NCBI GenBank assembly: GCA_963768675.1
Contig: CAVYIV010000026.1
Span: 23,988-87,987 of the forward strand
DNA: 64,000 nt
Origin: an uncultured Chloroflexia bacterium
GTDB taxonomy: Bacteria > Chloroflexota > Limnocylindria > Limnocylindrales > CSP1-4
Direction of reading: 5' to 3'
A program made the translations under genes and the position numbers. The notes beneath the pieces are model-generated. The model had not been told where the DNA came from. It was given only the letters and a program-made list of their open reading frames with translations, and made no database searches. Below, one piece after another: positions 7,040 to 59,128 of the stretch. How positions within the stretch are numbered: the first letter of the stretch is position 1; each line of letters begins with the position of its first letter.

Positions 7040-7047
7040 GGCGGGCA

Positions 7048-10317: not shown

Positions 10318-10340
10318 TTTGAGGTTCGTGAGCGTCTTGT

Positions 10341-11466: not shown

Positions 11467-11569
11467 CGTAGCCCTCCGAGGCGACGGGCAATCCGGCATT
11501 GACTATCGCCTATCTGCGCAAGCGCGACCGATACCCTCTCACTCTCGAGCAAGGCACGCCAAGGAGCAC

Positions 11570-18704: not shown

Positions 18705-18880
18705 CCCTCGCCGTCACACTAGGCTGTCCCCGAGACGCTCGAACGCCGGGGCCCGGACGACCGGGCCCCGGCGTTTCGATTTCCGGGGGCTGATCCCGGC
18801 TAACCGGACGAATGGCGTCATGCGGTATGTGCGAGCCCGCGCGGATCGCCTCGCGCCGAGCCCACGCTCCATGCGCGGAC

Positions 18881-34152: not shown

Positions 34153-34512
34153 CTACCGGATCAGGAAGAGGCTGCCGAGGAGGATTGCAAGCACGCCGAG
34201 CGTGATCGCCGTGTAGAGCCGGTCGCCCTCGAGGGCGAACGCGGCGACCGACGTGGCGACCCGGACGACCGGCGTCGCGATTAGGACGACGAGCCCGGCC
34301 TGGGCGATCGCGACCGGGCGCAGGGCCGCCAGCCCGTCCACGATCCCCCCGAAGTCGCTCGGGGACGTCGTGTCCGCGCCTCGACCTAGGAGCGAGCCCT
34401 GCCAGCCCACGACGAGCGAGCCCGTGAAGCCGACCGCGATGAGCGCGGCGCTCGCGACCACGCCGACGATGAGGACGGCACTCACCAGGGCCCGGAAGCG
34501 ACCGGGGGTCAC
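34153..34512 (-). CDS. DUF1634-like small membrane protein
   Basis: ORF 34153..34512(-). It has three hydrophobic helices and overlaps the upstream TauE/SafE gene by 4 nt, which is the usual partner arrangement for DUF1634. Confidence 0.65.
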   Translation of the reverse strand: MTPGRFRALVSAVLIVGVVASAALIAVGFTGSLVVGWQGSLLGRGADTTSPSDFGGIVDGLAALRPVAIAQAGLVVLIATPVVRVATSVAAFALEGDRLYTAITLGVLAILLGSLFLIR

Positions 34513-35351
34513 AGGTTGATCCCCAGGCCGCGGGCCAGGGTCTGCAGCCCGATGACGACGAGCACGGGCAGGAAGACGAGCCGGACGTTCCGGTTCGACA
34601 GGCGCGGCAGGATCCGCGCCCCGACCATTGCGCCGGCGAGGACGCCCAGGGCCACGGGCCCCGCGATCGTGACGTCGACGTCGCCGCGACCCAGGTAGAT
34701 GCCCGCCGAGGCGGCCGCCGTCACGCCGATCATGAAGTTGCTGGTCGCGGAGCTCACCTTCATCGGCAAGCGCATCGCACCGTCCATCGCGAGCACCTTC
34801 AGGACGCCGGACCCGATGCCGAGGAGCCCGGAGACGAGACCCGCTCCCGCCATCAGCACGAAGCCCAGCGGAATCCGGATCGCGACATAGGGGACGTCCC
34901 GACCGAGTCGCGAATCCGGGTACTCCCCGCTGAGCCGTAGGCGCGTCGCGAGCGGCGACGACCCCGTCGCGGGAGGCAGCTCCTCGCCGAGGCGGAGTGC
35001 CTGCTGGACGGCCGAGAAGAGGAGGACGATCCCGAGGAGGACATAGAGCAGGCTCGGTGCCACGACCGCCGCAAGCAGCGCGCCGCAGACCGCACCGCTG
35101 GTCGTCGCCAGCTCCAGGAACATGCCCACGCGCATGTCGGTCATGCGATCCCGCACGTACGCGGCTGCGGCGCCGGAGCTCGTCGCGATCACGCTCACGA
35201 TGCTCGCTCCGACGGCCAGCCGGATGTCGACGCCGAAGAGGAGTGTGAGGGCCGGGACGATGAGGATCCCGCCGCCGACCCCCGCGAGGGCGCCGATCAG
35301 ACCGGCCGCGATGCTGATCGCGAACATGCCGACCTCGGCTCCGAGGGTCAT
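34509..35351 (-). CDS. TauE/SafE family sulfite/anion exporter
   Basis: ORF 34509..35351(-). It has about 8 TM segments and repeated GxGGG-type motifs (GALAGVGGGILIVP, GLLGIGSGVL). Confidence 0.8.
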   Translation of the reverse strand: MTLGAEVGMFAISIAAGLIGALAGVGGGILIVPALTLLFGVDIRLAVGASIVSVIATSSGAAAAYVRDRMTDMRVGMFLELATTSGAVCGALLAAVVAPSLLYVLLGIVLLFSAVQQALRLGEELPPATGSSPLATRLRLSGEYPDSRLGRDVPYVAIRIPLGFVLMAGAGLVSGLLGIGSGVLKVLAMDGAMRLPMKVSSATSNFMIGVTAAASAGIYLGRGDVDVTIAGPVALGVLAGAMVGARILPRLSNRNVRLVFLPVLVVIGLQTLARGLGINL

Positions 35352-35468
35352 CTCACCACCTGCACGCCCGGCCGCTCCGCGCCCGGGGTGCCAGCGTCCG
35401 GGAGCCGCACGGTCGTCGCCATCGAGCGCGATGATAGTGGTCGTCGCACCGGAGGCTGTAGTTCATCA

Positions 35469-35543: not shown

Positions 35544-36062
35544 ATGGCCGTCAAGACCGCATCCATCGCGCTCGACGGGCCCGACCTTCGCTTCGTTGCC
35601 CGAACCGGGAGCGGGCACATGCTCGTGCTCGATGACGGCAAGGGAGACGCCGGGCCCCGTCCCGCGGAGCTGATCCCGGTGGCGCTCGCAGCCTGCACCG
35701 CCATGGACGTGATCTCCATCCTTCGCAAGAAGCGCCAGGAGGTGTCGCGCTACGAGGTGCGCGCCGAGGGCATTCAGGAAGACGATCACCCGAACGCATT
35801 CACCCGGATCGACCTCCTCCACGTCATCGACGGGCCGTCGGTCGACGTCGAGGCGGTTCGCCGCGCGATCGAGCTCTCGGCCACGAAGTACTGCAGCGTG
35901 GGCGCGACCCTGTCGAGCGGCATCACCGAGATCCACCACGCCTATCTCGTCCGGGACGAGGACGGCGGGGAGCGGACGGCGGAGGTGATCGTCCTGGGAT
36001 CGGGTGCGGATCGTGTTGCGACGCTCGACCGAGCCCAGGCAGCGGCGGCGACGGCGGGCTGA
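35544..36062 (+). CDS. OsmC family protein (thiol peroxidase-like)
   Basis: Lies inside ORF 35388..36062(+), with ATG 35544 (MAVKTASIALDG...). PAELIPVALAACTAMDV and SATKYCSVGATL carry the two OsmC cysteines. Confidence 0.8.
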   Translation: MAVKTASIALDGPDLRFVARTGSGHMLVLDDGKGDAGPRPAELIPVALAACTAMDVISILRKKRQEVSRYEVRAEGIQEDDHPNAFTRIDLLHVIDGPSVDVEAVRRAIELSATKYCSVGATLSSGITEIHHAYLVRDEDGGERTAEVIVLGSGADRVATLDRAQAAAATAG

Positions 36063-36105
36063 CGGGCCACGGCCGGCGCAGACGTTCTCCAAAGAGGCGA
36101 TCGCG

Positions 36106-36681
36106 ATGTCCAGCAAGCACCGGGGCAATCAGGAGGGCGGGCACCGAGCGCGCGCCGCGGCCCCCGCCCGACGATCCGCCGCCCCGGGCCGAGGTAACCC
36201 CGCCTCGCGGAGCAGGCGCACGTGGGTGCTGCTCGGGTCGGGTCTCGTCGTCGCGCTCCTCGCGGTCGTCGCCGGGTGGGTCGTCCTCACCGGGAGTGCC
36301 GGGACCGCGGCGCCGGCCGGCGGCTCCGATGGGACCGTGGTGCAGGCCAACGGCGGGCACTGGACCAACATCACGCCCGACAAGCTGGCCGCGATGCTCG
36401 GGGCGAAGGACTTCACGCTTCTCAACGTGAAGACGCCCTACATCGGTGAGATCGCCGGGACTGACCTGTACATTCCGTACGATGAGGTCGCCGCCCGCGC
36501 CGCCGAGCTCCCGAAGGACAAGAGCGCCAAGATCGTCGTCTACTGCCGAAGTGGCACCGAGAGCGCGATCGCGGCCCAGACGCTGGTCAACCTCGGCTAC
36601 ACGAACATCGACAACCTCGCCGGCGGGATGAACGCCTGGATCGCAACAGGCCGGCAGCTTGTCCAGCTCAACCGCACGTGA
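36106..36681 (+). CDS. membrane-anchored rhodanese-domain sulfurtransferase
   Basis: Lies inside ORF 36004..36681(+), with ATG 36106. It has an N-terminal TM segment (WVLLGSGLVVALLAVVAGWVVL) and the rhodanese active-site loop VVYCRSGTES. Confidence 0.8.
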   Translation: MSSKHRGNQEGGHRARAAAPARRSAAPGRGNPASRSRRTWVLLGSGLVVALLAVVAGWVVLTGSAGTAAPAGGSDGTVVQANGGHWTNITPDKLAAMLGAKDFTLLNVKTPYIGEIAGTDLYIPYDEVAARAAELPKDKSAKIVVYCRSGTESAIAAQTLVNLGYTNIDNLAGGMNAWIATGRQLVQLNRT

Positions 36682-37098
36682 CCGCCTGCCTAGCCTCCCT
36701 CCGGCTGGATCGACGCTTCTCCGCTTGGGCCCTCCCATGGGTCCTCGCCTTGCTGGTCGCCTTCGCGACAAGCTCGGTCACGAGCAGTTCGCGGTGGAGC
36801 ATGAAGAGGGACCCCGCGAAGCGGACCCGCGCGGTAACGGGTTCGACCAGGCTCCCAGGACCGGCACACGAGGATGGTCGCGGCCATCGCCGACTGCCGG
36901 GTCTTGCTGGCACGCTGGATGGGCGCCGCTGCGTTCGCCAGCATGCAGCAGGCGGGAATATCCCGATCGCGACGGACATCGCGGACATCGGCTCGGCCGT
37001 CGGGGCCTACCTCGATGGCTCGTTCCGTAACCTCGTGGCGAAGCTGTGCTAGAGACATTCTGCCGGAGCTTTATGGGCCGCGCGACCGTTCGGCGAGG

Positions 37099-37962
37099 TT
37101 ACCTCGGGGGGGCCGCCGGGCGGCCCTCCACCGCGTCGGGTGGCTCGGTCCGCGGCGATCGAGCGTGGCGGACGACGAAGATGACCGCCGCACCGAGGAC
37201 GGTGATGCTCGCCACGATCTGCGCCGTCGGGATGCCGAAGAAGGTCCAATTGTCGGCCTTGAGCGTCTCCACCGCGAAGCGGACCGAGCCGTACCAGATG
37301 AAGAACACGAGGAGCAGGTCGCCGGGCCGGAGCCGGGCGGCGAACCGCCGCGCCAGCCAGACCAGGACGAGCGCCCCGACGAGGCCCGACAGCGACTCGT
37401 AGAGGAACATCGGCTGGAAGTGCTGTCCGAGCGTCGCGGTCGGGTCCGAGCCCGGCGGACAGGCATATCCCTGGGTCCGGTACTGGCACTCGATGGCGAT
37501 CCCCCAGGGCAGGTTCGTCGGCGAGCCGTACAGCTCCTGGTTGAAGAAGTTGCCCCAGCGCGCGATCGCCTGCATCACGAACAGCCCGGGCGCCACCGCG
37601 TCCGCCCAGGCCAGGAAGGGCTGGCCCTTCCAGCGGGCGTAGAGCCACGCGGCGACTGTCCCGGCGATGATCCCGCCGTACACCCCGAGGCCCGAGTAGG
37701 GTGGCAGGACGATCCGGAGCAGGTCGTCTCGGTAGAGCTGCCACTGGTCGATCACGTGATAGAGCCGGCCGCCGGCGAGGGCCGCGATCGCGACGACGAT
37801 CATCGCGTTCGGAAGCAGATCGACGTCGAGGCCGCGCCAGCGCGCCTCGTGGCTGATCACGAGATAGGCCGCCGCGAGCCCGACCGCGTAGGCGACGCCA
37901 TACCAGTGAAGGGCGAGCGGACCGATGGCGAACGCGATCGGCGATGGGGTCAGGTCGATCAC
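37099..37962 (-). CDS. lgt: prolipoprotein diacylglyceryl transferase
   Basis: Lies inside ORF 37099..38172(-). The start is uncertain, and GTG 37962 gives VIDLTPSPIAFAIGPLALHWYG. Lgt motifs include HWYGVAY, AIARWGNFFNQELYG and FLYESL. Confidence 0.8.
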   Translation of the reverse strand: MIDLTPSPIAFAIGPLALHWYGVAYAVGLAAAYLVISHEARWRGLDVDLLPNAMIVVAIAALAGGRLYHVIDQWQLYRDDLLRIVLPPYSGLGVYGGIIAGTVAAWLYARWKGQPFLAWADAVAPGLFVMQAIARWGNFFNQELYGSPTNLPWGIAIECQYRTQGYACPPGSDPTATLGQHFQPMFLYESLSGLVGALVLVWLARRFAARLRPGDLLLVFFIWYGSVRFAVETLKADNWTFFGIPTAQIVASITVLGAAVIFVVRHARSPRTEPPDAVEGRPAAPPR

Positions 37963-38109
37963 GGCTGGAAGTGTGGCAGCGATCGCCAATCCGCCTCGAT
38001 GCAGGCCTCGGGCACCAGGGTCTCCTTCTAGTCCGCGTCCCGGACGAGCCGGACCCCAGGTCCGCGTGGCCCCCGATCTTGTGACGAATGGCCCACCAGT
38101 GATATGTGC

Positions 38110-38140
38110 TATGCGCATATATTCGTCATGCGCGAATATA
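38110..38140. promoter_or_regulatory. candidate ArsR operator/promoter: the palindrome TATGCGCATA (38110-38119) overlapping the inverted repeat TATATTCG-N7-CGAATATA (38118-38140)
   Basis: Read directly from the sequence. This is the most AT-rich stretch I noticed in the window, 52-82 nt upstream of the ArsR start at 38192. Confidence 0.5.
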
Positions 38141-38191
38141 AGGCGACCGCACTGACAGCCGGTCGCCGGCACACGGAGGACTTCGAACGCG

Positions 38192-38572
38192 ATGGAGCGT
38201 CAGAACGCCACGCACGACATCGACGAGCTTCAGGCCTCGATGCTGCGTTCTCTGGCCAGCGCACATCGCCTGCGCATCCTGCACCTGCTCGGCGTTCATC
38301 CGTTCGAGGTCAACGAGATCGCCCGAGAGCTCTGCCTGAGCCAGGCCGCGGCCTCGCAGCACCTCGCGGCACTCCGCTCGATCGGCCTCGTCGAGGCGGT
38401 TCGCGACGGACGGACGGTCGAGTATCGCCTCGCCGATCCACAGGTCCTTGCAGCATGCGAGCTCATGCGATCGGTCCTCGTTCGACGGCTGTCGAGGCTC
38501 GGCGACCTCGCTGCGGCAGCCTACGAGCCGGCTCTCCAGGCACTCAACTCCAGCGAGGTGCATCACTCGTGA
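38192..38572 (+). CDS. ArsR/SmtB-family transcriptional regulator
   Basis: ORF 38192..38572(+), with GGAGGA upstream. It has a wHTH segment (LASAHRLRILHLLGVHPFEVNEIARELCLSQAAASQHLAALRSIGLV) and two Cys residues. Confidence 0.85.
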   Translation: MERQNATHDIDELQASMLRSLASAHRLRILHLLGVHPFEVNEIARELCLSQAAASQHLAALRSIGLVEAVRDGRTVEYRLADPQVLAACELMRSVLVRRLSRLGDLAAAAYEPALQALNSSEVHHS

Positions 38573-38976
38573 GCGGATCCCTCTCCCTCGTGCTCTTCTC
38601 GGGCACGGACGACAAGCTGATGGCGGCAGCAACGCTCGCCGCCGGCGCCGCAGCCATGGACCAGCAGGTCGACGTCCTGCTCATGTTCTGGGCGCTCGAC
38701 GCGTTCCGGAAGGACCGCATCACGACCGCCCACGGCCTTGCCTACGACGCCGCGCGCTCCCGGCCGAACGAGCCCGTGGGGAACGTCGGCGCCCTTCCCT
38801 GGCTCGAGACGTTCCGCCAGGCGAAGGAGATCGGCGAGATGACCATCCGGGCCTGCTCCGGATCGCTCGACACGCTGGGGCTCGATCCCACCGAGCTCGA
38901 CCCCATCGTGGACAGCGCGGGCGGGATCGCGTCGTTCCTGATGGCGTCCGAGGGCAGCCAGATCCTGTTCATCTGA
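38569..38976 (+). CDS. DsrE/DsrF-like family protein
   Basis: Lies inside ORF 38104..38976(+). GTG 38569 overlaps the ArsR stop (GTGA). The sequence is SLVLFSGTDDKLMAAATLAAGAAAM...TIRACSGSL. Confidence 0.65.
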   Translation: MSGSLSLVLFSGTDDKLMAAATLAAGAAAMDQQVDVLLMFWALDAFRKDRITTAHGLAYDAARSRPNEPVGNVGALPWLETFRQAKEIGEMTIRACSGSLDTLGLDPTELDPIVDSAGGIASFLMASEGSQILFI

Positions 38977-39011
38977 TCGCGGCAAACGGAAAGCGCAAGG
39001 AGAAGGAAGCC

Positions 39012-39278
39012 ATGCCAGCCACAGTCACCGAAGCCGAACTCGACACGATCACCGCCGACAAGGTCATCGACGCGCGCGGCGCCGCCTGCCCGGGCCCCCT
39101 CCTCGAAGCCAAGAAGGGTATGGGCACGGTGCCTGTCGGCGGGGTGATCGAGGTCTGGTCGAGCGACCCCGTCACCAAGACCGACATCGGGGCGTGGTCC
39201 ACGAAGGTTGGTCACGGGTTCCTCGGCGTCCTCGTCGCCGACGGGTACGACCGCGTCTTCGTGCGCCGCCAGAAGTAG
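39012..39278 (+). CDS. tusA: TusA-family sulfur carrier protein
   Basis: ATG 39012 follows AAGGAGAAGGAAG. It has the canonical IDARGAACPGPLL (CPxP) motif and is 88 aa long. Confidence 0.85.
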   Translation: MPATVTEAELDTITADKVIDARGAACPGPLLEAKKGMGTVPVGGVIEVWSSDPVTKTDIGAWSTKVGHGFLGVLVADGYDRVFVRRQK

Positions 39279-39352
39279 CCGAACCAGGACGATCCGGCGG
39301 AGCGCCAGCGCGCGTGACCGCCGGATCGACCGGAGCCAGGAGCGACCGCCCC

Positions 39353-39796
39353 ATGACCGCGTCCGTCGCCGGAGAGGCCCTGACTGAGGCGCCGGCCTTC
39401 GTCCCCCGGATCCTCGTCTTCTCGACGCACAACATCTCGGACCCGGGCATCGACCTGGCGGGAAGCTCGCACATGCACTACACGCCGGGCGTGATGGTCA
39501 TGCCCATGCCGTGCACGAGCGGGATCAAGCCGGCCTGGATCGCCCACGCGATCGAGCGGGGCTTCGACGGCGTCTTCGTCGCCTCCGACGGTGACGAGTG
39601 CGCCTATCTCCCGGACTGCGCCGAGCGCGCCTCGCGGATCATGGCGCAGGCGAACGCGCTGCTCAAGGAGGCGGGCCAGTCGACCCAGCGGCTGAAGATG
39701 GCCGCCATCTGCTCGGTCTGCGCCGAGCCGTTCACCCGGCAGGTGACGCAGTTCGCCCAGGCGCTCGTCGCCCTCGGGCCCTCGGGAGTGCGCTGA
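39353..39796 (+). CDS. MvhD/FlpD-like iron-sulfur protein (methyl-viologen-reducing hydrogenase delta-subunit family)
   Basis: Lies inside ORF 39194..39796(+), with ATG 39353. VMPMPCTSGIKPAWIAHAIERGFDGVFVASDGDECAYLPDC matches the MvhD Cys pattern. Confidence 0.7.
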   Translation: MTASVAGEALTEAPAFVPRILVFSTHNISDPGIDLAGSSHMHYTPGVMVMPMPCTSGIKPAWIAHAIERGFDGVFVASDGDECAYLPDCAERASRIMAQANALLKEAGQSTQRLKMAAICSVCAEPFTRQVTQFAQALVALGPSGVR

Positions 39797-39799
39797 GCC

Positions 39800-42522
39800 A
39801 TGGACTACGACGTGCTCGTCGTCGGCAGCGGCATCGGGGGGATGGAGTCCGCCCTGAAGCTCGGCGACATGGGCTTCAAGGTCCTCCTCGTCGAGCGGGA
39901 GGCCAGCGTCGGCGGGAAGATGATCCTGCTCAGCAAGGTCTTCCCCACGCTCGACTGCGCCAGCTGCATCTCGACGCCGAAGATGGCGTCGACGATCCAC
40001 CACCCGAACATCACGACCTACACGTACAGCGAGGTCGACGGGATCGAGCCGGACGGCGCCGGCCGCTTCCACGCCCGGATCACGCGGAAGGCGCGCTTCG
40101 TGGACGAGGCGGCCTGCACCGGCTGCCAGAAGTGCGAGACGGCCTGCACCGTGGCGGTGCCCGACCAGTTCAACGCCGACCTGGTCGCCCGGCGTGCCGC
40201 CTACATCGCGTTCCCCCAGGCCGTGCCCAAGAAGGCGGTCATCGACCGGGGCGGGAGCTCGCCGTGCTCCTGGGAATGCCCCGCGGGGATCCAGGCCCAC
40301 GGCTACGTCTCGCTGATCCGGAGCGGCGAGTACGAGAAGGCCTACCGGCTCGTGCTCGAGGCGACCCCGCTGGTCGGGACCCTGGGCCGCGCCTGCTACG
40401 CGCCGTGCGAGGCGGAGTGCACCCGCGGCTCGCTCGAGGGGACCCTCCCGATCCGCCTCCTCAAGCGGTTCGTCTCCGACCATCACGACGCCACTGCCGA
40501 GCGGCCCGGGCATCGAGATCGCCGAACCGAACGGCCGCAGGATCGCGATCGTGGGCTCCGGCCCCACCGGCCTCACCGCGGCCTGGCAGCTCGCCCGCCG
40601 CGGCTACGCCGTCAAGATCTTCGAGGCGGCCCCGGAGCCGGGCGGGTTCCTCCGCCTGGCGATCCCGTCCTACCGCCTTCCCGTCGAGGTCGTCGAGCGC
40701 GACATCGAGAACGTGCGCGCCATCGGCGTGGAGATCGTCACCAACAGCCCCGTCCGGGACGTGGCCGCGCTCAAGGAGGCCGGCTTCGACGCCGTCCTCG
40801 TGGCGACGGGCACACCCCGCTCGGCGGGGATCGGCGTCCCGGGCGAGGACCGGCTGGGCGTCCTCGGCGGCACGGACTTCCTGCGCGCGGTGAAGCTCGG
40901 CCAGCCGATGGACCTGACCGGAAAGCGCGTCGTCGTGGTCGGCGGCGGCAACGTCGCCATGGATGCCGCCCGGACGGCGCGCCGGCTCGGCGCCGCATCC
41001 GTCACGGTCGCCTACCGGCGTGGCCGCGGGGAGATGCCGGCGCACCACGTGGAGGCCGACGACGCCGAGCGCGAGGGCGTCGAGTTCAGCCTCCAGGTCA
41101 CGCCCGCCGAGGTGCTCGGCGACGAGCATGGTGCGGTGAGCGGCCTGCGGTGCACCCGCATGGCGCTCGGGGCCCCGGACGCATCCGGCCGGCGCCGCCC
41201 AGAGCCGATCCACGGCAGCGAGTTCGTGCTGCCCTGCGAGATCGTCATCGGTGCCATCGGCATGCGGCCGGACACCGGCGCCTTCGCCGAGCGGATCGGG
41301 ACCAAGGCGAACGGCACGCTCGTGGCGGACCCGACGTCCCGCCAGACCGACCTTCCCTACGTCTTCGCCGCCGGCGACGTCGTGAACGGGGCGACCGACA
41401 TCACGCGGGCGGTCGGCGAGGGTCGCCGGGCGGCCCACATGATCGACCGCTGGCTGACCGGCGGGATGCTCGCCGGGTTCGACGACCGGCTGCCCGTGAT
41501 CGACAAGGAGCAGGTTCTCGCCCGCCAGAAAGCGTACACGCTTCGGAGCCCGCTCCCGAACTCGACCCGGCTCGTCGCAAACCCGACCGACTTCTCCGAG
41601 GTGGAGGCTCCGCTGACCGAGGCGGATGCGCGCCAGGCGGCTGGTCGCTGCCTGGACTGCGCGGTGTGCAGCGAGTGCGGCGAGTGCGTCGCAGCCTGCC
41701 CGGTCGACGGGTGCATCGACCTGCGCGCGCGCGACGAGAAGCTGGAGGTGGACGTCGACGCGGTCGTCGTTGCCACCGGCTTCAAGCTCTTCGCGGCGGA
41801 TCTCAAGCCGCAGTACGGCTACGGGACGTACAAGAACGTCATCACCGGCATGCAGATGGACCGCCTGCTGGCCCCGACCCGGCCCTTCAACACGATCCTC
41901 CGGCCGGGCGACGGGAAGGTTCCCGAGCGGATCGCCTACGTCCTGTGCACGGGATCGCGCGACGAGACCGTGAACAACCCGCTCTGTTCGCGGTTCTGTT
42001 GCATGTACTCGATCAAGCAGAACCAGCTGCTCATGGGCGCGCTGCCCTTGGCGGACGTGACCGTTCACTACATGGACATCCGGGCCGCCGGCAAGCGCTA
42101 CGACGAGTTCTACGAGCAGGCGAAGTCGATGGGCGCCACCTACGTGAAGGGTAGGGTCGCCAAGATCACCGAGAAAGACGACGGCAACCTGGTCCTTCGC
42201 TACGAGGACATCGAGAACGGCGGCCGTCTCGTCGACGCGGAGTACGACCTGGTCGTCCTCGCGGTCGGCGTGCAGCCGAACAGCGATGCACAGGGGCTCT
42301 TTCCCGAGGGCGAGCTGGCCGTCGACGAGTTCCGCTACGTGGCGGAGCCGAACGAGGACCTGAACCCGGGCGCGACGAGCATCCCCGGGGTCTTCGTGGC
42401 GGGTGCGGCCTCTGGCGCCAAGGACATCGCCGACTCGATCCTGCACGCGGGTGTCGACCGCCGCCCAGGTGGCGGCGCACCTCGAACGAGCACGCCTGGC
42501 GAAGGTGGAGGTGCCGGCATGA
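39800..42522 (+). CDS. HdrA-like flavoprotein with an inserted GltD/NfnB-like NAD(P)H-binding module; two frameshifts (about 40508 and about 42452)
   Basis: The HdrA N-terminal part is in ORF 39800..42154 (VVGSGIGGMESA, GGKMILLSKVFPTLDCASCISTPKM, CTGCQKCETAC, AYIAFPQAVP). The GltD-like part and the HdrA C-terminal part are in ORF 40551..43949 (IAIVGSGPTGL..., VVVVGGGNVAMDAAR, then CLDCAVCSECGECVAACP, VVVATGF, LCTGSRD, CSRFCCMYS). The ending ...STAAQVAAHLERARLAKVEVPA-TGA is one frame over. Confidence 0.75.
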
Positions 42523-44331
42523 GCCAGGCCGAGCCGGCCAGCACCGCTCCTGCCTCTGCCGGCCCATCTCCGATCCCCACCGCCGACGCTGCCCCCGCCG
42601 CGCGCCGGATCGGCGTCTACGTCTGTCACTGCGGCGGCAACATCTCGGACTACGTCGACGTCGCCAAGGTCGTCGAGGCGGTCCAGGGAGACGGCGACGT
42701 CGCCGTCGCACGAACCGCCATGTTCGCCTGCTCGGACGCCACGCAGCAGGAGATGATCGACGACATCCAGGCGAACCAGCTCGACGGCCTGGTCGTGGCC
42801 TCGTGCTCGCCCAAGCTCCACACGTACACGTTCCGCGCCGTCGCGACGCGGGCCGGGTTGAATCCCTACGAGTACTCGCAGGTCAACATCCGCGAGCAGT
42901 GCTCCTGGATCCACACGGACGATCGCGAGGGCGCGACCAGCAAGGCCATCGGCCTCGTCGAGGCCGGGATCGCCCGGACGCGCCTGAGCGAGCCCCTCGA
43001 GCCGACGGTCGTCGAGACGACCCCGAAGACGCTCATCATCGGCGGCGGCATCGCCGGCCTCCGGGCGGCGGTCGGGCTGGCCGACATCGGCCTCCAGGTG
43101 GTCGTGGTCGAGCGCGAAATCACGCTGGGCGGCTGGGTCGGCGGCTTCGGCGAGATGTACCCGCACGGCAAGGACGGCCGGGCCCTGATCGCCGGCCTCG
43201 TGGCGGAGATCAAGAAGCGCCCCGCGATCACCGTGCTGACCGGAGCCGAGGTCGTCGGCGAAGTCCGGCAGCTTCGGCAACTACGACGTCGAAGTCCGCG
43301 TCGGCGGACCGGGCGCCGGGAGCATCTCCATCCGGGTCGGCTCGATCATCGTCGCCACCGGGTTCGACTCCTACCAGCCCGAGGCCGGCGAGTTCGGCTA
43401 CGGGATCGACGGCGTCCTGACGCTTCCGGAGTTCACGGCGCTCCTCGATCGCTCGACCGGCCCGCTGGTCCACGGAGGCCGGCCCGTGCGGAGCATCGTG
43501 TACGTCTACTGCGTCGGCAGCCGCCAGCCGGCCGACGGCGACGGCGCGAACGCCTACTGCTCGCGCTTCTGCTGCACCGCCGCGGTCCACGCGTCGGTCC
43601 GCGCGGCCGGGCTGTACGCTTCCGCCCGCCAGTACCACCTGTACCGCGACATGCGGACGTACGGGAAGTACGAGACCCTCTACACGCGGTCGCGCGAGCT
43701 GGGCTCGGTCTACCTGCGCTTCCCCGACGACGCACCGCCGGCCATCGCGCAGGGACCCGACGGCCGCCTCGTCGTGACCGTGCGGGACCTGCTCACCGGC
43801 GGCGAGGAGCTCGCGATCCCGGCGGATCTCGTCGTGCTGGTGACGGGCATGGTCCCCCGCAAGAACGAGGAGCTCGTGGGCGTCCTCAAGCTCCCGCTGG
43901 GCTCGGACGGGTTCTTCAACGAGATCCACCCGAAGCTTCGGCCGGTTGAGACGGTCGTCGGTGGGGTGCTGATCGCGGGAGCGTGCCAGGGCCCCAAGTC
44001 CTCCGCGGAGAGCGTCGCATCCGGCCTGGCGGCCGTGACCCAGAGCGCCGCGGTCCTGCGCAAGGGGTTCGCGGAGCTCGATCCGCTCGTCGCCACGGTG
44101 AACACGGGCGCGTGCACCGCCTGCGGAAAGTGCCTGGACGCGTGCCCGTACGGGGCCATCTCGATGACCGGCCTCGACGGGCGACAGGTGGCCGTCATCA
44201 GCGAGACCGGCTGCAAGGGGTGCGGTGGCTGCGTCCCGATGTGCCCGGACGACGCGATCGACCTGCGCGGGTACACCGACGCCCAGATCAGGGACCAGAT
44301 CGACCGGCTGCTGGAGGTCCCCGTCGCATGA
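42519..44331 (+). CDS. HdrA-family flavoprotein (N-terminal FeS domain, FAD domain, C-terminal 2x[4Fe-4S] ferredoxin); one frameshift near 43265
   Basis: ATG 42519 overlaps the upstream stop (ATGA). RIGVYVCHCGGNISDYVDV...VVASCSPKLHTYTFR...NIREQCSWIH and LIIGGGIAGL are in ORF 40551..43949. The sequence continues as SGSFGNYDVEV...IVATGF...YVYCVGSR...CSRFCC...ACTACGKCLDACP...GCKGCGGCVPMCP in the frame of ORF 43486..44331. Confidence 0.75.
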
Positions 44332-44570
44332 GCACGAAGAGCAGGGAGGTCCGCGAGGTCGTGCGCGAGGAGCCCGTGATGCGCGGACGTATCCTCGAGG
44401 CGCTCCGGGAGGGTCCGCGGACCGTGCCGGAGATCGCGGCGGCAATCGGCAGCCCGACCCACGAGGTGGTGTTCTGGGTGATGGGAATGCGCCGCTACGG
44501 CTGGCTGCGCGAGGTCAAGGGGCCGGCCGAGGACGGCTACTTCCGATATCAGGCGGAGGAGCGGGCATGA
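44328..44570 (+). CDS. small winged-helix-like protein (80 aa), function unknown
   Basis: ATG 44328 overlaps the HdrA stop, and its own stop overlaps the next start. RILEALREGPRTVPEIAAAIGSPTHEVVFWVMGMRRYGWL looks like a wHTH. Confidence 0.55.
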   Translation: MSTKSREVREVVREEPVMRGRILEALREGPRTVPEIAAAIGSPTHEVVFWVMGMRRYGWLREVKGPAEDGYFRYQAEERA

Positions 44571-45757
44571 CCGCGCTGGTGGACGTCGGACTCTACGGGG
44601 AGCTCCAGAAGTTCGGCGCGGCCGATGTCTCCGCATGCTTCTCTTGTGGGACATGCACGGCAACCTGCCCGCTGGTCACGGACGACGCCACGTTCCCCCG
44701 CCGGATGATCCGGTACGCACAGGTGGGGCTGCGCGACAAGCTCCTCTCGAGCAAGGAGCTCTGGACCTGCTATTCCTGCGGCGAGTGCTCGGAGACGTGC
44801 CCGACCCAGGCCGAGCCGAGCGAGTTCATGGCCGCCGCGCGCCGGTATGCGATCGGCAGCTACGACCGGACCGGGCTCGCTCGGACGATGTACACGCGGC
44901 CTGTGCTGGGCACACTGATCGCGGTCTTCTTGGCCGCGTTCTTCGCGATCTTCATGGCCGCCGGCCATGCGATCCCGTCCGGCGGGAGGCTCGACCTCTT
45001 TGCGTTCGTGCCCGAGGATCTCATCCACTCGATCGGCGTCGTCGTGATGGTGCTCGTCGCGCTGGCCGGCCTCGCCGGGCTCGTGACGATGGCGCACCAG
45101 GTTGGGCGCTCCGAAGGCGTGGGCTGGCGCACCGTGTTCGGCAGCCGCGCGGCCGTGCGTCGATCCGCCACGGCACTCTGGGAGTCGATCGGGGTCGAGT
45201 CGGTCGGCCAGCGGCGCTACCGCGAGGACTGCGACGCCGACAAGGCGACGGTCCCACTCTACCGCCGCCGCTGGCTCCTCCATGCCCTGACGATGTGGGG
45301 CTTCCTGGGGCTCCTCGCGGCCACGATCCTCGACTACGGCCTGGCGCTGCTCGGCATCAAGGCGACCGGTACGCCCGTGCCGATCTGGTACCCGGTCCGC
45401 CTGCTGGGGACCGTCGCCGGGCTGATGCTGGTCTATGGCGCGAGCATGCTCATCGTCGAGCGCTATCGCAAGGCTAGCCGCTCGGTGGCGCACTCGGCCC
45501 CGGCCGACTGGACCCTCCTCACCCTGCTGTGGATCACCGGCGTCACCGGGTTCACACTCGAGCTTGCCCTGTACCTGCCGCAGGCGCCGACCTGGGGCTA
45601 CTGGGTCTTCCTCTTCCACGTGGCGGTCGCGATGGAGCTGGTCCTGCTGGCACCCTTCATGAAGCTGGCGCACGTGATCTACCGGCCGGTGGCACTCTTC
45701 TTCTATGCGCTGGGTCGGGCACCCGACCAGCCCGACCTTCAGGGAGGCACGCGATGA
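44567..45757 (+). CDS. QmoC-like subunit: HdrC-type 2x[4Fe-4S] domain fused to a NarI/HdrE/DsrM-type membrane domain
   Basis: Lies inside ORF 44225..45757(+), with ATG 44567. It has CFSCGTCTATCP and CYSCGECSETCP, followed by about 6 hydrophobic helices with conserved His residues. Confidence 0.7.
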   Translation: MTALVDVGLYGELQKFGAADVSACFSCGTCTATCPLVTDDATFPRRMIRYAQVGLRDKLLSSKELWTCYSCGECSETCPTQAEPSEFMAAARRYAIGSYDRTGLARTMYTRPVLGTLIAVFLAAFFAIFMAAGHAIPSGGRLDLFAFVPEDLIHSIGVVVMVLVALAGLAGLVTMAHQVGRSEGVGWRTVFGSRAAVRRSATALWESIGVESVGQRRYREDCDADKATVPLYRRRWLLHALTMWGFLGLLAATILDYGLALLGIKATGTPVPIWYPVRLLGTVAGLMLVYGASMLIVERYRKASRSVAHSAPADWTLLTLLWITGVTGFTLELALYLPQAPTWGYWVFLFHVAVAMELVLLAPFMKLAHVIYRPVALFFYALGRAPDQPDLQGGTR

Positions 45758-46248
45758 CCGGCAGCCTCGAGCACGTCGCCCATGCGCACGGTGAGTACAT
45801 GCTGAGCCAGATCGACCGGATGCCCGGCGTGGGGGACATGGTCGGGACGGCGACCCCGGCCGAGCTCCGCGTGAGCCTGGACGAGATGCACGCCTTCCTG
45901 ACCGAGGCCCTGATCCCGCACATGGAGGCCACCGAGGCCTCGCTCTACCCGGAGCTGGAGCGGATGTTCCAGAACGTCCATTCGATGGCGCCGCTCCGAC
46001 GCGAGCATGCCGAGATCCGCCGGTCGACCGCCGAGCTGGCCCGAGTCCGCAAGCACATCGGCGAGGACCGGATCTCGGTCGGCGACGCGATCGCACTGCG
46101 CCGGGTGATCTTCCACCTCTACGCGCTCCTGAAGGTGCATCTCGCCGAGGAGCAGGTCTACCTGGACATCCTCGATCGGCGCGAGGCGCCCGAGATGGCC
46201 GATGCGCTCGCCGCGGCGATGGCGCACCCCGGCAGCCCGGAGGTCTGA
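45754..46248 (+). CDS. hemerythrin-domain protein
   Basis: Lies inside ORF 45529..46248(+). ATG 45754 overlaps the upstream stop. H/E-rich helices (HAHGEYM, LIPHMEATE, LRREHAEI, VHLAEEQ) are typical of the hemerythrin HHE cation-binding domain. Confidence 0.65.
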   Translation: MTGSLEHVAHAHGEYMLSQIDRMPGVGDMVGTATPAELRVSLDEMHAFLTEALIPHMEATEASLYPELERMFQNVHSMAPLRREHAEIRRSTAELARVRKHIGEDRISVGDAIALRRVIFHLYALLKVHLAEEQVYLDILDRREAPEMADALAAAMAHPGSPEV

Positions 46249-46380: not shown

Positions 46381-46608
46381 ATGAGCGAGAAGCAGGACCA
46401 CGTTGGCGACTTCGCCGAGGGCGAGGAGAAGGAGCACGTCAAGCCGGGCACCCTGATGGGCGACTTTGCGGCCGGCCAGGAGAAGGAACCCCGGGTCGGG
46501 ACCGTCCAGCCGCGCGGCGATTTCGCGGCGGGGCAGGAGAAGGAGCCGGTCGATCCGACGGCCCCGCGGGGTGACTTCGCGGCGGGCGAGCGAACGCTTC
46601 CCAGGTAG
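46381..46608 (+). CDS. small acidic repeat protein, 4 x GDFA(E/A)G(E/Q)EKE-like motif
   Basis: ORF 46381..46608(+), with GGTGGAG 8 nt upstream. The GDFAxG motif recurs at four positions. Confidence 0.6.
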   Translation: MSEKQDHVGDFAEGEEKEHVKPGTLMGDFAAGQEKEPRVGTVQPRGDFAAGQEKEPVDPTAPRGDFAAGERTLPR

Positions 46609-55227: not shown

Positions 55228-57700
55228 GAGGCCGACGCAGCACCGGGAGCGTCGACCACCGAGACGCGGAGATTCCGGCCTTCCCAGCGCGACGCCTGCG
55301 GCCACCAGGGGGTGAACTCCACCGCCCTGCCGGGCGGGAGCAGCTCCGAGCCCGGGCACGTCCGCGACCCACACGCCGACGCCGGTGTCACGGGCGTCGA
55401 TGTCGGACCACGTCCGCCACGCATCGAGCGTGCACCGCACCCGGGCCGGGGCCAGCAGCTCGATCCGGAGGACACGCCCCGCCGCCATGGCCGGGCGCGG
55501 CGCGGTGAAGCGCCACGTGGCCCGCGACGGAGCCGGGCGCCTCGCCGTGGTAGCGGTGCCACGCCGCGTCGGGGCGGTCGATCGCGTGACCGAGCGCGAT
55601 CGAGCGCAGCGAGCTTCACGTACTCCGCGTGGGCCCAGGCGAGCGGCATAGCCGAGCCGCTCGGGCGGCCCGCGAAGGAGGCCGCGGCCGGGATCGGCGT
55701 CCGCGTCCCAGACCTGCTCGGGAAGCATCCCGCCCCCCGACGCCATGCTGCCGCATCGTCTCGAGGTACGGGCGGGCGTCCCGGCCGGCCTCCAGCTCGT
55801 AGTGGCCGCGCTCGCCGACGAGGAGCGGCCAGCCCCGGCCGATCCCGGTGCCGTCGAACGCGCTGCCGTCCTCGTGCTCGCCATAGCCGTCGCCGCTGTA
55901 GCGGTGCCAGACCGGTCCGCTCGGCGTCTCGGTGCGCAGCAGGCGCGTCGGTGACGGCGAGCGTCGACAGGATGCGCGGGTCGTCGGCCGCGCGCAGGCC
56001 GAAGCGCACGAGGGCGAGGAAGTCCGTGCCGACCATCTCGTCGGCCGGGACCATCGACGCGCCGGGCGGCCGGTTGCGCACCGGGACGGGCGTGGAGATC
56101 GGTGCGCCGGCCAGCACGTCGGGCGCGGCGATCCGGACGTAGTGCCCGTCGACGCCGTGCGCCCGCGCCAGCCGCGAGCCGCTCGCGATACGTCCAGTCC
56201 TCGATCGAGGCGTTCCAGTCGTCGGCCAGCTCGCGGCAGGTAGGTCGCCGCCGGCTCCGGGTGGTGGTCTGCGGCCACGACGAGCGCGGCGACGACGGGC
56301 GCCAGCGTGGACGGCGTCAGGCCGGCGTTCTCCTCCCAGCGGTCCTGTCCGGTTGCCGGGCCGGTGCGGGCGATGAAGCGGCCGCCGACGCGATCATGTG
56401 GTCGAGCGCGTCCTCGGTGAGGAGGTGCTCGAAGGCGGCCGCGTCGCTGCCCGCCATCCCGTGCATGTCGGCCGCGCCGCCTCTCCGGAGGGCGCCGGCG
56501 AGGAGGATCGGGTAGGCCGCCTCGTCGAGCTGGACGCCCGACCAGTAGGCGACGCCGTCCACCCACTGGTTCTGCACCCAGTGAGCCGTCCGGCTCCTGG
56601 GTCGCGACGAGGTAGGCCAGCGTCCGGCGCGCCGATGCGTGCCGGCTCCGAGCGCGACGAGCGCGCCGGCGGACTCGACGAGGTCCCGCGACCAGACCAG
56701 GTGGTAGCCGCCAAGGTCATTGCGCGTGTTGCCCCACGGGATCGACAGGCTCGCGACGATCGCGCCCGGCACGGTGCGGTCGGCTGTGGGTGCGCAGGAC
56801 CGCGGCGGAGTCGAGGTAGAGGTCGCGGTCCTCCGCCGGGACGTCGGCCGCGGCGGTGGAGTCACGGTCGCCAGGAAGCCCTGCCAGTTGCGCCACGTAC
56901 TCGTCCCAGGCGTTCTCGAAATGGCCGGCGAGCGCCGATGCAGGCCTCCAGACCGGCCTCCTCGGGCCGGGTCCCGAAGCCCAGGGCAAGGCGCGCGACG
57001 CCGTCGGCGAGCACGGAGCTCGGTCATGCCCGGCGACGTTGCCGGCCTCGGTGGTCTCGTACGTCCAGGTCATGCGTCCGTTCGTCGCGAAGTCCTGCCA
57101 GCCGTCCGACCGCCCGACGTACCCGACGCTCTGGCGGGCGGGGCCGGGCTCGGACGCGAGCGCGAGGGCGGCCTCGCCCTTGCGGGCGAACAGCATCGGG
57201 CCGTCCCTTGTAGGTCCCGGTCCACGCCCGGTTGTGGAGCCCGCTGAAGCCCAGGTGCGGGGCGAGCAGAGGGTAGAGGCGCAGCGGGTGCGTCAGGCGG
57301 TCGGGGTTAGACGCGTCGCGCGGGTCCTCGAGGTCGGGCCTCGATGCGCACGACGTCCGCGTGGTCGTCCGCGCAGATGCGCAGGGTCAGGGTGTAGCGC
57401 GGGTGGCGGTGGGCCGCCACGATGGCGGGGACGCCCGGCGCGAGGTGATGCACCTCCCGCGCGGCATCCCGCTTCACCTCGCTCCAGAACCCGAGCGTCG
57501 TCGGCGACGATGAACCCGAGGTCGCGCACCTGCGGCCGGTCCACCCGGGGCCAGTAGATCTCGTTGAGGATCCCGTGGCCGACCGTGAACCAGACCCGGC
57601 TCGAGAAGTGGGACGTGCCGACGGCGTCCTTCTCGCTACTCGACCAGGTGGGCGGCGCGCCGGGCGCGCCCGGCGCATGCAGGGGGTCGTCGGCCGTCAT
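55224..57700 (-). pseudogene. glycoside hydrolase family 15 (glucoamylase/glucodextranase-like), broken by about 15-17 frame changes
   Basis: Recognisable GH15 segments occur in order but hop between all three minus frames: VWFTVGHGILNEIYWPRVD; LRLYPLLAPHLG; MLFARKGEAALALA; FENAWDEYV; GAIVASLSIPWG...GGYHLVWSRD; QNQWVDGVAYWSGVQLDE; QDRWEENAGLTPSTLA; DGHYVRIAAPD; DFLALVRFGL; WHRYSGDGYGEHEDG...GRGWPLLVGERGHYE; GMLPEQVWD; MPLAWAHAEYVKL. ATG 57700 overlaps the zwf stop. Confidence 0.7.
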
Positions 57701-59128
57701 GGCGCGCTCGCCCGTGGCCGGCGCCCCGCGCGCGCCGCGTCGGACGGGGCCGCGGTCGCGATGGCCGGGTCGTGCCAGCGGTCGCCCCGCGCGAGGATCG
57801 CAGACGCCTCGCCGGGACCCCAGGTGCCGGGCTCGTACTCGTGGATGGGTGTCCGGTCGTCCAGGATCCCGTCCACGACCCGCCAGGCCGCCTCGACCGA
57901 ATCCTCGCGCGCGAACAGGGACTGGTCGCCGCGCGTCGCGTCGCCGATCAGGCGCTGGTACGGCGGGCGCTCCGTCCCGCTCTGGTGGGACGCGTAGAGC
58001 TCCACGGCCTCGCCGACCATCGCCTCGCCGGGCTTCTTGGCGCGCGCGCCGAGCGAGATCGACATGTCCGGCGAGAGCCGGAAGCGGAAGTGGTCGGAGT
58101 CGGGCGGCTGGGGCTCCGCGAACACCGCGTGGGGCGGGCGCTTCAAGCTCCACGAGGACCTCGGTCGCGGTGACGGGAAGGCACTTGCCGGTCCGGATGT
58201 AGAACGGGACGCCGCCCCAGCGCCACGTGTCCACGTGGAGGCGGAGCGCCGCGAACGTCTCGACCGTCGATCCGGGCGCGACGCCGGGCACGTCGCGGTA
58301 GCCGCGGTACTGGCCGCGCACGACGTCGCCCGGCCCGAGGGGCCGGATCGAGTCGAGCACCTTGAACTGACCGTCGCGGACCGCCTCGCTCGTGTGCCCC
58401 GAGGGAGGCTCCATCGCGAGCAGGCTCACGACCTGGAGGAGGTGGTTCTGGACCACGTCCCGGATCGCGCCGGCCTGGTCGTAGAAGGCGCCGCGGTCGG
58501 CGACGTCGAAGGTCTCGGGCATGTTGACCTGGATGCTCGCGACGTGGTCGCGGTTCCAGAGCGGCTCGAGGAACGAGTTGGCGAAGCGGAAGTAGAGCAG
58601 GTTCTGGACCGGCTCCTTGCCCAGGTAGTGGTCGATCCGGAAGATCGCGGGCTCGTCGAGGACACGGTGAACGGTCGCGTTCAACGCCACGGCGGAGGCG
58701 AGGTCGCGACCAAATGGCTTCTCCAGGATCACGCGGGCGCCCGCTGCGCACCCGGACGCCGCCAGGTTGGCGACCACCTCGCCGAAGAGCGCGGGCGGGA
58801 CCGCCAGGTAATGGAGCGGGCGGGCGGCCGCGCCGAGCTCGCGACGGAGGGCCCGAAATGTCTCGATGTCGTCGTCCGAGCCGCGGACGTAACGCAGCCC
58901 GGCGAGGAGACGCCGGACGGCGGCCGAGTCGGCGACGCCCGCAGCCGCAAGGCTCTGGCGGGCACGCTCGCGGAGCGCGTCGAGGTCGCCGGAGCGGGCG
59001 ACGCCGATGATCGGCAGGTCGAAGCCTTCGGCGCGCACGAGGCTGAGGAGCGCCGGGAAGATCTGCTTGAAGGCCAGGTCGCCCGTCGCCCCGAAGAAGA
59101 CGAACGCGTCGGAGTGCTCGGCGGCCAT
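57697..59128 (-). CDS. zwf: glucose-6-phosphate dehydrogenase; one frameshift near 58143
   Basis: ATG 59128 (MAAEHSDAFVFFGATGDLAFKQIFPAL). RIDHYLGKE and YFRFAN are in ORF 57293..60319. The C-terminal 149 aa are in ORF 57697..58146 (KRPPHAVF...PYQRLIGDA...EYEPGTWGP). Confidence 0.85.

Follow-up and report, generated by a model that had tools for sequence, protein, structure and literature searches.

Genes of the operon

The DNA considered here, a stretch of 64,000 nucleotides (nt; hereafter the window) from an uncultured Chloroflexia bacterium of the order Limnocylindrales (GenBank assembly GCA_963768675.1, contig CAVYIV010000026.1, positions 23,988 to 87,987), has a G+C content of about 70% and carries an operon of nine co-directional genes (38192-46248, + strand) in which a TusA sulfur carrier precedes a set of HdrA- and Qmo-like redox proteins. 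The gene list and the coordinates given for it in an initial annotation, made from the sequence alone, proved correct against Pfam, NCBIfam and the translations of the open reading frames (ORFs); the products, with lengths in amino acids (aa), are the following:

38192-38572, + strand: ArsR/SmtB-family regulator, 126 aa (HTH_5, 2.9e-10)
38569-38976, + strand: DrsE_2-type sulfurtransferase of the DsrE family, 135 aa (PF13686, 1.1e-12); GTGA overlap with arsR
39012-39278, + strand: TusA sulfur carrier, 88 aa (PF01206, 1.3e-16, 60.6 bits), with the motif C26-P-G-P
39353-39796, + strand: MvhD/FlpD-like [2Fe-2S] electron-transfer subunit, 147 aa (PF02662, 7e-28)
39800-42522, + strand: HdrA::GltD fusion (HdrL type) in a QmoA-like position, 906 aa after frame correction (Fer4_20, Pyr_redox_2, HdrA/HdrA2)
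42519-44331, + strand: second HdrA in a QmoB-like position, 604 aa after frame correction (HdrA/HdrA2 models); ATGA overlap with the fusion gene
44328-44570, + strand: winged-helix protein, 80 aa (w80; weak Pfam helix-turn-helix matches only)
44567-45757, + strand: QmoC-like subunit (NCBIfam qmoC, full length, 211.6 bits for a cut-off of 300)
45754-46248, + strand: hemerythrin-domain protein, 164 aa (PF01814); ATGA overlap with qmoC

GTGA/ATGA overlaps of 4 nt occur at five of the eight junctions (arsR/drsE2, hdrL/hdrA, hdrA/w80, w80/qmoC and qmoC/hemerythrin), as the initial annotation had it for most of them; the other three are gaps of 35, 74 and 3 nt, the last being the distance between the end of mvhD and the gene for the HdrA::GltD fusion. 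The same nine genes, all intact, are present in the metagenome contig L001, which has 93% nucleotide identity to the window. A sigma-70 promoter scan of the operon returned no site, terminator-like matches in it were at chance level, Rfam gave no match over the whole window, and an exact-sequence look-up of the QmoC product retrieved nothing on record.

Conservation and variants of the cluster

Relatives of the cluster were located by a scan for QmoC loci that took one genome per species and used a 19-sequence alignment, one of 67 sequences being too diverse. The QmoC-like protein fell into 197 clusters (50% identity) with E below 1e-30, and at least 593 QmoC-like loci were confirmed in species-level genomes from soils, peat, sediments and freshwaters; the combination of genes that had been considered unusual is one variant within a cluster family of that size. 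The best 80 of these at least 593 loci, from which the taxonomy was read, belong to Chloroflexota, Actinomycetota (including Thermoleophilia), Acidobacteriota, Bacteroidota, NC10, Planctomycetota, Spirochaetia, Desulfobacterota, Ignavibacteria, Latescibacteria and one Heimdallarchaeota metagenome-assembled genome (MAG), and the hosts include Acidobacteriaceae, Bacteroidales and Limnocylindrales-like MAGs. As for cultured hosts, an acidobacterial QmoC query matched only MAG or metagenome proteins among the named ones.

The presence of each gene was counted in the 62 QmoC-like loci having at least 6.5 kb of upstream sequence, onto which the nine window proteins were mapped:

TusA: 60 of 62 loci
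MvhD: 61 of 62 loci
First HdrA: 61 of 62 loci
Second HdrA: 61 of 62 loci
w80: 47 of 62 loci (tblastn)
ArsR: 29 of 62 loci
GltD insert in the first HdrA: 14 of 62 loci

TusA was directly upstream of mvhD in these 60 loci, which span about ten phyla, and a DsrE-type gene was adjacent in 36 of the 56 loci with both flanks, so that the sulfur-relay genes are conserved with the hdr genes, in agreement with the unit proposed initially. When all the flanking ORFs were clustered, every other family was confined to about a quarter of the loci or fewer, the recurrent extras being rhodanese, LysR, PadR, thioredoxin and a sigma-54 activator. The core of the cluster is TusA-MvhD-HdrA-HdrA'-wHTH-QmoC (wHTH, winged helix-turn-helix), and the window holds its less common "long" variant; because most members of the family do without the GltD insert, NAD(P)H appears to be an accessory input and not part of the core.

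Regarding the variants, the Chloroflexota locus with the closest QmoC (L004, 4282-11595) has ArsR, DrsE_2, QmoC and hemerythrin 88-92% identical to those of the window, whereas identity drops to 33-57% for its MvhD, its two HdrAs and its 80-aa protein, which are of the short type and have no GltD; this contrast suggests that the flavoprotein cassette was exchanged between close relatives while the anchor was retained. In two Thermoleophilia loci (L046, 13900-21150, - strand; L068, 13400-20700, - strand), TusA-MvhD-HdrL-HdrA-w80 is followed by an HdrC-like protein (104 aa) and a CCG-domain HdrB-like protein (325 aa) in place of QmoC, and the cluster stands back to back with a QmoC-bearing one of the short variant. 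Long-variant loci of Bacteroidota (L072, 320-3737; L051, 1-3581; L081, 113-3604) have extra genes ahead of DrsE2-TusA, which encode a DsrC-like protein, a membrane protein of 210 aa, a Fer4+CCG protein (HdrD/DsrK-like) and a class-V aminotransferase similar to cysteine desulfurases. Finally, an acidobacterial short cluster (L084) lies beside genes for an AhpC-type peroxiredoxin, a DsrE-family protein, a metallo-β-lactamase (MBL)-fold protein and a rhodanese.

The redox subunits

The Qmo-like architecture proposed in the initial annotation was borne out, as two HdrA-type flavoproteins, an MvhD and an anchor that fuses HdrC and HdrE parts were all found. The first HdrA begins at the flavin adenine dinucleotide (FAD)-binding motif and stops after the flavin domain, with no N- or C-terminal Fe-S domain; it retains C53/C56, aligned with C194/C197 of M. 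wolfeii HdrA, the cluster motif CxGxRD...CSxxCC and, from the inserted ferredoxin domain, its two cluster motifs (C106-C116 and C623-C633). Between these last two motifs sits the GltD module (residues about 141-615), of the GltD/NfnB type with NAD(P)H, FAD and 2x[4Fe-4S] sites, so that it lies inside the inserted ferredoxin domain: Fer4_20 and Pyr_redox_2 span residues 154-541 of the fusion, the HdrA2/HdrA models match both flanks, and the short variants, having no GltD, align only to residues 1-161 and 618-894. An NAD(P)H module is present in this protein, as initially annotated, and its best structural relatives are StnC, NfnA and NfnB. The fusion has hundreds of full-length homologues with 78-97% identity, and the named ones are from Chloroflexota or Candidatus Limnocylindrales MAGs.

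The second HdrA comprises an N-terminal Fe-S domain, an FAD domain and a C-terminal 2x[4Fe-4S] ferredoxin, and aligns to residues 5-234 and 317-648 of M. wolfeii HdrA. The alignment revealed neither the inserted ferredoxin domain (M. wolfeii residues about 235-316) nor equivalents of C194/C197, and the protein is thus not the canonical HdrA that it had been taken for. It ends after the ferredoxin domain; MvhD is a separate upstream gene, whose product matches the C-terminal MvhD part of the HdrA2 model. In scores, archaeal (methanogen) HdrA reached 376 bits and sHdrA (6tjr) 103 bits. Because the Fe-S domains and cysteines missing in one HdrA are present in the other, the two are suggested to be complementary in domains and to form a QmoA/QmoB-like heterodimer, a comparison made in part against the structure of M. 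wolfeii HdrA.

The QmoC-like subunit joins an HdrC-like 2x[4Fe-4S] domain to a six-helix membrane domain with six hydrophobic segments. In the 67-sequence alignment of diverse relatives, eight Cys residues and H239, H351 and H369 were invariant and H154 was the majority residue; these four conserved His residues presumably bind two haems b. As for w80, it has no cysteines and 786 homologues, and it is always located between the second hdrA and qmoC; its AlphaFold2 model (predicted local distance difference test, pLDDT, 83) gave generic winged-helix matches of the ArsR/MarR/SmtB type, none with E below 1e-3, and the Pfam matches were weak ones to helix-turn-helix models, leaving a DsrD-like identity unsupported. 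The hemerythrin is kept only in close Chloroflexota relatives (5 of 72 loci). Directly 3' of the operon, an acidic 75-aa protein with GDFAAGQEKEP-like repeats is encoded (46381-46608, + strand); it is conserved in L001 (9773-10000) and had no Pfam match.

TusA, DrsE_2 and their neighbors

The TusA gene is preceded by an AAGGAG ribosome-binding site, and the C26-P-G-P motif of its product, where sulfur is predicted to bind, is conserved in 97-100% of 64 cluster-linked homologues. Cys96 of DrsE_2 is invariant in 28 homologues from related loci. Upstream of the operon, three genes with sulfur-related products were identified by Pfam, co-transcription with the operon not being shown for any of them:

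34510-35433, - strand: TauE/SafE-type exporter
35544-36062, + strand: OsmC-like protein
36106-36681, + strand: membrane-anchored rhodanese, 1.5 kb upstream of the operon

A rhodanese gene was near the cluster in 19 loci. In the window, lgt is also upstream, and the 75-aa repeat protein, a MarR regulator and a ClC channel are downstream. Compared with L001, rhodanese and lgt are inserted between the OsmC gene and arsR (36080-38175 in the window, against 1234-1453 in L001), and homology between the two restarts only 17 nt ahead of the arsR start. Between rhodanese and arsR, two relatives with 82% identity (L002, 7219-7485; L003, 6990-7502) encode a small membrane protein that contains the motif GCPVCNK and was not matched by Pfam.

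The regulator and its upstream palindrome

ArsR scored 74 bits with the NCBIfam model HTH_metalloreg and was below the cut-offs for BigR, TsoR and CmtR; with the BigR model, its score was 36.9 for a cut-off of 155. Among 39 homologues, no conserved pair of cysteines was found: C89 is present in 64% of them and C48 is lost in L002 and L003. At what we take to be the α2 Cys position of SqrR/BigR, the window protein has a His (ILHLL). The initial annotation had cited sHdrR-type regulators as controlling sulfur-oxidizing Hdr-like loci, but for the window protein neither the BigR score nor the poorly conserved cysteines give evidence of an sHdrR, BigR or SqrR type.

A further element precedes the gene:

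38100-38141, no strand assigned: AT-rich operator/promoter-like patch upstream of arsR

Within it, at 38118-38140 and 50-75 nt before arsR, is the perfect inverted repeat TATATTCG-N7-CGAATATA, and related AT-rich palindromes (ATATAyG ... CATATAT ... CGwATAT) are located upstream of arsR in L001, L004 and L007, where the upstream genes differ. From this pattern the patch may be an operator, and an ArsR-family repressor bound to the palindrome would probably control the operon.

Search for catalytic subunits and sulfur enzymes

The initial annotation had noted that no HdrB, HdrC, Apr or Dsr partner is encoded in the window, and tblastn, a CCG regular expression, Pfam and the translations agree with it. 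When the whole window was searched by tblastn with three CCG proteins, the matches were confined to the ferredoxin part of qmoC, and the regular expression found nothing; an HdrC-like domain is present only at the N-terminus of the QmoC-like protein. Apr, Sat, Dsr and DsrC were not among the window genes that were scanned with Pfam or read from translations. EtfAB/EMO was not found among the operon genes, the scanned flanks and the gene tables of L001-L003, and the same holds for LbpA, in a search that did not exhaustively scan small ORFs for LbpA/GcvH. In 83 loci, taken with as much as 10 kb of flanking sequence on either side wherever the contig extended that far, the search yielded neither a Sat motif nor any recurring family of Apr size, and a CCG gene was detected by tblastn and motif within 10 kb in 6 of the 83 loci and not in the other 77. 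The absence of HdrB and HdrC therefore holds for the window and not for the whole family, given the HdrC and HdrB of Thermoleophilia and the HdrD/DsrK-like protein of some Bacteroidota.

Frameshifts in the two hdrA genes

The two largest genes of the operon are interrupted in the window sequence. The alignment to the intact L001 confirmed the three frameshifts reported initially, each being a single extra base: 40501 (G) and 42453 (G) in the gene of the HdrA::GltD fusion, and 43259 (C) in the second hdrA. Removing them restores proteins of 906 and 604 aa; the former has intact database counterparts with 97% identity and a length of exactly 906 aa, and L001 encodes intact HdrA homologues of 906 and 601 aa. 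A coding-frame walk together with the translations found further stop-free changes of coding frame across the window, and the translations revealed these genes as split between frames:

About 30355: class-III aminotransferase
About 31455: saccharopine dehydrogenase
About 52186: P-type ATPase
About 58132: glucose-6-phosphate dehydrogenase (G6PD)
About 62508: DUF1365 protein

Several frame switches also occur at 55750-57760, a region not scanned that resembles a glucoamylase gene by eye. The splits in genes outside the operon point to an indel-prone, probably long-read, assembly, and because at least five other window genes are affected, the three hdrA frameshifts are most likely errors of sequencing or of the assembly consensus and not signs of decay. 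If the frameshifts were real, the cluster would be a decaying one and the complex would not be made in this organism, a reading given some weight by the position of the three +1 insertions, which fall in the two largest genes over a distance of 2.8 kb and outside any long homopolymer. It is nevertheless quite improbable: single-base insertions aside, both hdrA genes read through in frame and are not stopped or disrupted anywhere else; similar frameshifts affect five or more unrelated genes of the window; the gene calls of the long-read metagenome contigs L002 and L003 are broken likewise at other sites; and the other seven genes of the operon are intact, as are all nine in L001 at 93% nucleotide identity. 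Pseudogenization specific to the operon was discarded as the main explanation, owing to the window-wide occurrence of the frameshifts.

Other regions of the window

The rest of the window is devoted to polysaccharide synthesis, amino-acid catabolism, transporters and sugar metabolism. Positions 1-12500 have a lower G+C content (about 0.66-0.68; most of the remaining sequence has about 0.70-0.75) and by eye resemble a polysaccharide-synthesis cluster with an epimerase, Wzz/tyrosine-kinase-like and O-antigen-ligase-like proteins, several glycosyltransferases and a C-methyltransferase; Pfam confirmed only the methyltransferase, a luciferase-like oxidoreductase and one glycosyltransferase of family 2 (GT2). 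A perfect 48-bp tandem repeat (13860-14108; 5.2 copies, 100% identity) encodes a PTPTPLPSPTPGRTPN repeat in an ORF of 427 aa (13833-15116, - strand). This ORF, without Pfam match, and a paralogous one that was not scanned (18382-19842, - strand) have in common a Cys-rich N-terminus, CP(L/M)LGLPFDR.THYT.PDPAHRCFA.KRLATAD...C...RF.ECERFR, followed in both by Pro-rich linkers and a hydrophobic segment; the pair flanks a ParA-like gene (by eye, 15453-16211) and a secreted protein with a SpaA_2 domain (17305-18564), in a region of weak coding signal.

Proposed mechanism and its alternatives

The observation made in the initial annotation is confirmed, and its interpretation, a quinone- and NAD(P)H-linked complex acting on protein-bound persulfide, is partly supported. 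On the evidence of domains and gene order, the chances are about even that the operon encodes a Qmo-type membrane complex having TusA-bound sulfur as partner, with electrons exchanged with quinone and NAD(P)H. In such a complex, the two HdrA-type flavoproteins would form a heterodimer with complementary domains, MvhD would be its [2Fe-2S] relay, and the QmoC-like subunit, with two [4Fe-4S] clusters and two presumed haems b, would be the connection to the menaquinone pool; w80 would be either a conserved accessory subunit or a local regulator. The GltD/NfnB module would be the NAD(P)H/FAD entry where ferredoxin is otherwise the likely partner: because GltD sits in the inserted ferredoxin domain, the long variant would have NAD(P)H as its third partner, and the short one probably ferredoxin. 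TusA, loaded by DrsE_2 and rhodanese, would bring the sulfur to the complex as its partner or substrate, a role that AprAB has in the case of QmoABC (PMC3333476). The reaction would most likely convert sulfane sulfur bound to TusA/DsrE (persulfide or thiosulfonate) into sulfide, with electrons split or merged at the HdrA flavin among NAD(P)H, quinone/quinol and the sulfur carrier; both this chemistry and an action on a protein-bound persulfide are inferences. Since the hosts are phylogenetically broad and the neighbors are typical of reactive-sulfur handling, the purpose would be the homeostasis or assimilation of sulfane sulfur, and not dissimilatory sulfate or sulfur respiration.

Several points weigh against this proposal. 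No subunit has a recognizable site for the reduction of persulfides or disulfides, and none has a CCG domain, as far as their sequences can be read. NAD(P)H alone is thermodynamically able to reduce persulfides, which leaves a quinone-coupled complex unexplained, and the reaction could run in the opposite direction. ArsR appears, from its alignment, to lack the cysteine pair of the known persulfide sensors; the complementarity of the two HdrAs depends in part on the M. wolfeii structure; and all the loci, by the origin of their sequences, come from MAGs or metagenomes. Moreover, relatives with HdrB or HdrD/DsrK-like proteins make it possible that an unlinked catalytic subunit operates here too.

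This last consideration leads to an arrangement that we regard as improbable, though it deserves attention, in which the complex feeds a CCG reductase (HdrB or HdrD/DsrK-like) encoded elsewhere, the two being parts of a split Hdr/DsrMK-type system acting on a DsrC/TusE-like protein or on a TusA-DsrE disulfide or trisulfide. The HdrC-like and HdrB-like genes of L046/L068, in place of QmoC, would fit it, and so would the DsrC-like, membrane and Fer4+CCG proteins encoded upstream in L051, L072 and L081: from these HdrBC- and DsrK-like variants, some lineages do seem to use a CCG site. However, a CCG gene is found within 10 kb in only 6 of 83 loci and nowhere in the 64-kb window, and in Thermoleophilia HdrBC replaces QmoC instead of supplementing it, which suggests alternative electron outlets. 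The lack of a catalytic CCG site also favors an explanation without any sulfur substrate, unlikely in our view and yet a serious one: the complex would be a bifurcating or confurcating module between NAD(P)H and quinone (plus ferredoxin), with TusA and DsrE only co-regulated with it; they might donate sulfur to build or repair its at least 11 Fe-S clusters, or be regulatory. Cofactor modules for NAD(P)H, for quinone and for a low-potential branch are indeed all present, a cysteine-desulfurase-like gene adjoins DrsE2-TusA in Bacteroidota, and the hemerythrin of the Chloroflexota versions could serve in Fe-S protection. It fits poorly with the retention of TusA across about ten phyla (60 of 62 loci), even in short variants devoid of the NAD(P)H module, and with neighbors typical of sulfane-sulfur handling (rhodanese, TauE, MBL-fold, DsrC-like); besides, other Fe-S-rich Hdr/Qmo operons are not known to carry dedicated TusA/DsrE genes.

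Very improbable, finally, is a plain QmoABC that takes part in sulfite oxidation or sulfate reduction by serving AprAB/Sat encoded at another place of the replicon. The subunit logic is that of QmoABC, the best NCBIfam match of the anchor is qmoC, and "type II" Qmo is reported from some sulfate reducers (PMC10504309); on the other side, the qmoC score of 211.6 bits is below the 300-bit cut-off, the 83 loci, with flanks of up to 10 kb, have no Sat motif or recurrent Apr-sized family, the constant neighbor is TusA and not apr, the hosts include Acidobacteriaceae, Bacteroidales and Limnocylindrales-like MAGs, and for both HdrAs the archaeal type of HdrA (376 bits) is a nearer match than sHdrA (103 bits).

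Returning to the Qmo-type complex with TusA-bound sulfur as partner, a bolder extension of it is put forward tentatively and with more doubt than confidence: the family would be an uncharacterized and widespread enzyme class, in which the HdrA heterodimer acts directly on the persulfide or thiosulfonate of TusA without a CCG subunit, bifurcation or confurcation reaches quinone together with NAD(P)H (long variant) or ferredoxin (short variant), the outlet is swapped between QmoC and HdrBC, and the whole flavoprotein cassette is swapped between genomes of close relatives as well. Energy coupling in methanogens and sulfate reducers depends centrally on HdrA- and Qmo-type flavoproteins, and this cluster offers a concrete handle on the roles of such complexes elsewhere and on the proposed third partner of Qmo. 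The candidate partner, TusA, is a small and easily produced protein, and the variation found in nature amounts to a set of built-in experiments, since the NAD(P)H module is present or absent and the outlet is QmoC or HdrBC. Should the substrate be TusA-bound sulfur, a new route would lead from intracellular sulfane sulfur to the respiratory chain in many abundant uncultured lineages that are not considered sulfur specialists.

Comparison with known systems

The initial annotation knew of no described system with this subunit set. This stands for the whole cluster, as no description of TusA-MvhD-HdrA-HdrA-QmoC was found in the open full-text literature, subscription reviews on TusA/HdrA being outside the search; only two open papers mention TusA, MvhD and HdrA jointly, and this cluster is the subject of neither. 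It does not stand for the parts, since HdrL with MvhD (PMC2702500) and "type II Qmo" (PMC10504309) have been described.

The sHdr systems of types I and II use a TusA/DsrE3 relay and LbpA (PMC11094781, PMC6067878), and are defined by the CCG subunits sHdrB1/B2 (or B3), sHdrC1/C2 and LbpA, with EtfAB-EMO in type II (PMC11094781). The window shares with them an Hdr-like flavo-Fe-S complex accompanied by TusA, a DsrE-type protein and rhodanese, and ArsR regulators are known there; in contrast, none of the sHdrB, sHdrC and LbpA markers was found at the operon. Membership was rejected on the absence there of a CCG HdrB and a separate HdrC, and of LbpA among the genes scanned. The sHdrA (6tjr) match is a distant one, with only 103 bits against 376 for methanogen HdrA.

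With the methanogen complexes MvhAGD-HdrABC and HdrA2B2C2, the likeness consists of the alignment of the second HdrA, the MvhD adaptor and a flavin that is a candidate bifurcation site. The window differs by having no hydrogenase and no HdrBC, the outlet being the quinone pool, and by the inserted ferredoxin domain, missing in one HdrA and split by GltD in the other. As for NfnAB, Stn and NfnABC, the insert of the fusion (residues about 141-655) matches StnC (8oh5), 9bov, NfnA (9n5u) and NfnB (5jca), with E from 1e-72 to 1e-102; the module is inside HdrA here, whereas in those enzymes it is paired with NfnA/NfnS or Bfu subunits.

The HdrL of Desulfobacterium autotrophicum is a fusion of HdrA with the glutamate synthase small subunit, has an NAD(P)H site, and is encoded beside mvhD (PMC2702500), similarly to the window, where the HdrA-GltD fusion comes directly after mvhD. 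Unlike it, the D. autotrophicum proteins are soluble and in many cases selenoproteins, and their links are to dsr, fdh or hdr genes, while the partners of the window fusion are a second HdrA, a QmoC-like anchor and TusA/DsrE.

Canonical (type I) QmoABC, from Desulfovibrio, Chlorobaculum and Archaeoglobus, links the quinone pool to a cytoplasmic sulfur enzyme, and confurcation with a third partner has been proposed for it (PMC3333476). Both systems have two adjacent HdrA-like flavoproteins, a module of the MvhD type, and a membrane subunit in which an HdrC-like 2x[4Fe-4S] domain is fused to an HdrE-like domain, dihaem in canonical Qmo and presumably so in the window. They differ in that the canonical MvhD is the C-terminal domain of QmoB and that of the window is a separate gene; in the GltD insert of the first HdrA and the extra 80-aa wHTH gene of the window; in the constant partner, TusA/DsrE here and aprBA/sat there; and in the anchor, whose 211.6 bits are below the NCBIfam cut-off of 300. 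Assignment to canonical Qmo was rejected because of the unfused MvhD and the lack of apr linkage in the 64-kb window and the 83 loci; the anchor has the QmoC architecture but a score under the qmoC cut-off.

The "type II" Qmo was reported from Ammonifex degensii, Vulcanisaeta moutnovskia and organisms without Dsr/Apr, with a role stated to be unclear, and its QmoA/B-like proteins are closer to typical HdrA than to bacterial QmoAB (PMC10504309). TusA, MvhD, a small wHTH protein and the GltD insert are unmentioned in the text consulted; on the side of likeness, type II Qmo is present with or without Apr/Dsr, and the closeness to HdrA described for it fits the HdrA-like scores of the window proteins. 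By this description and by the HdrA scores, the window cluster may belong to type II Qmo.

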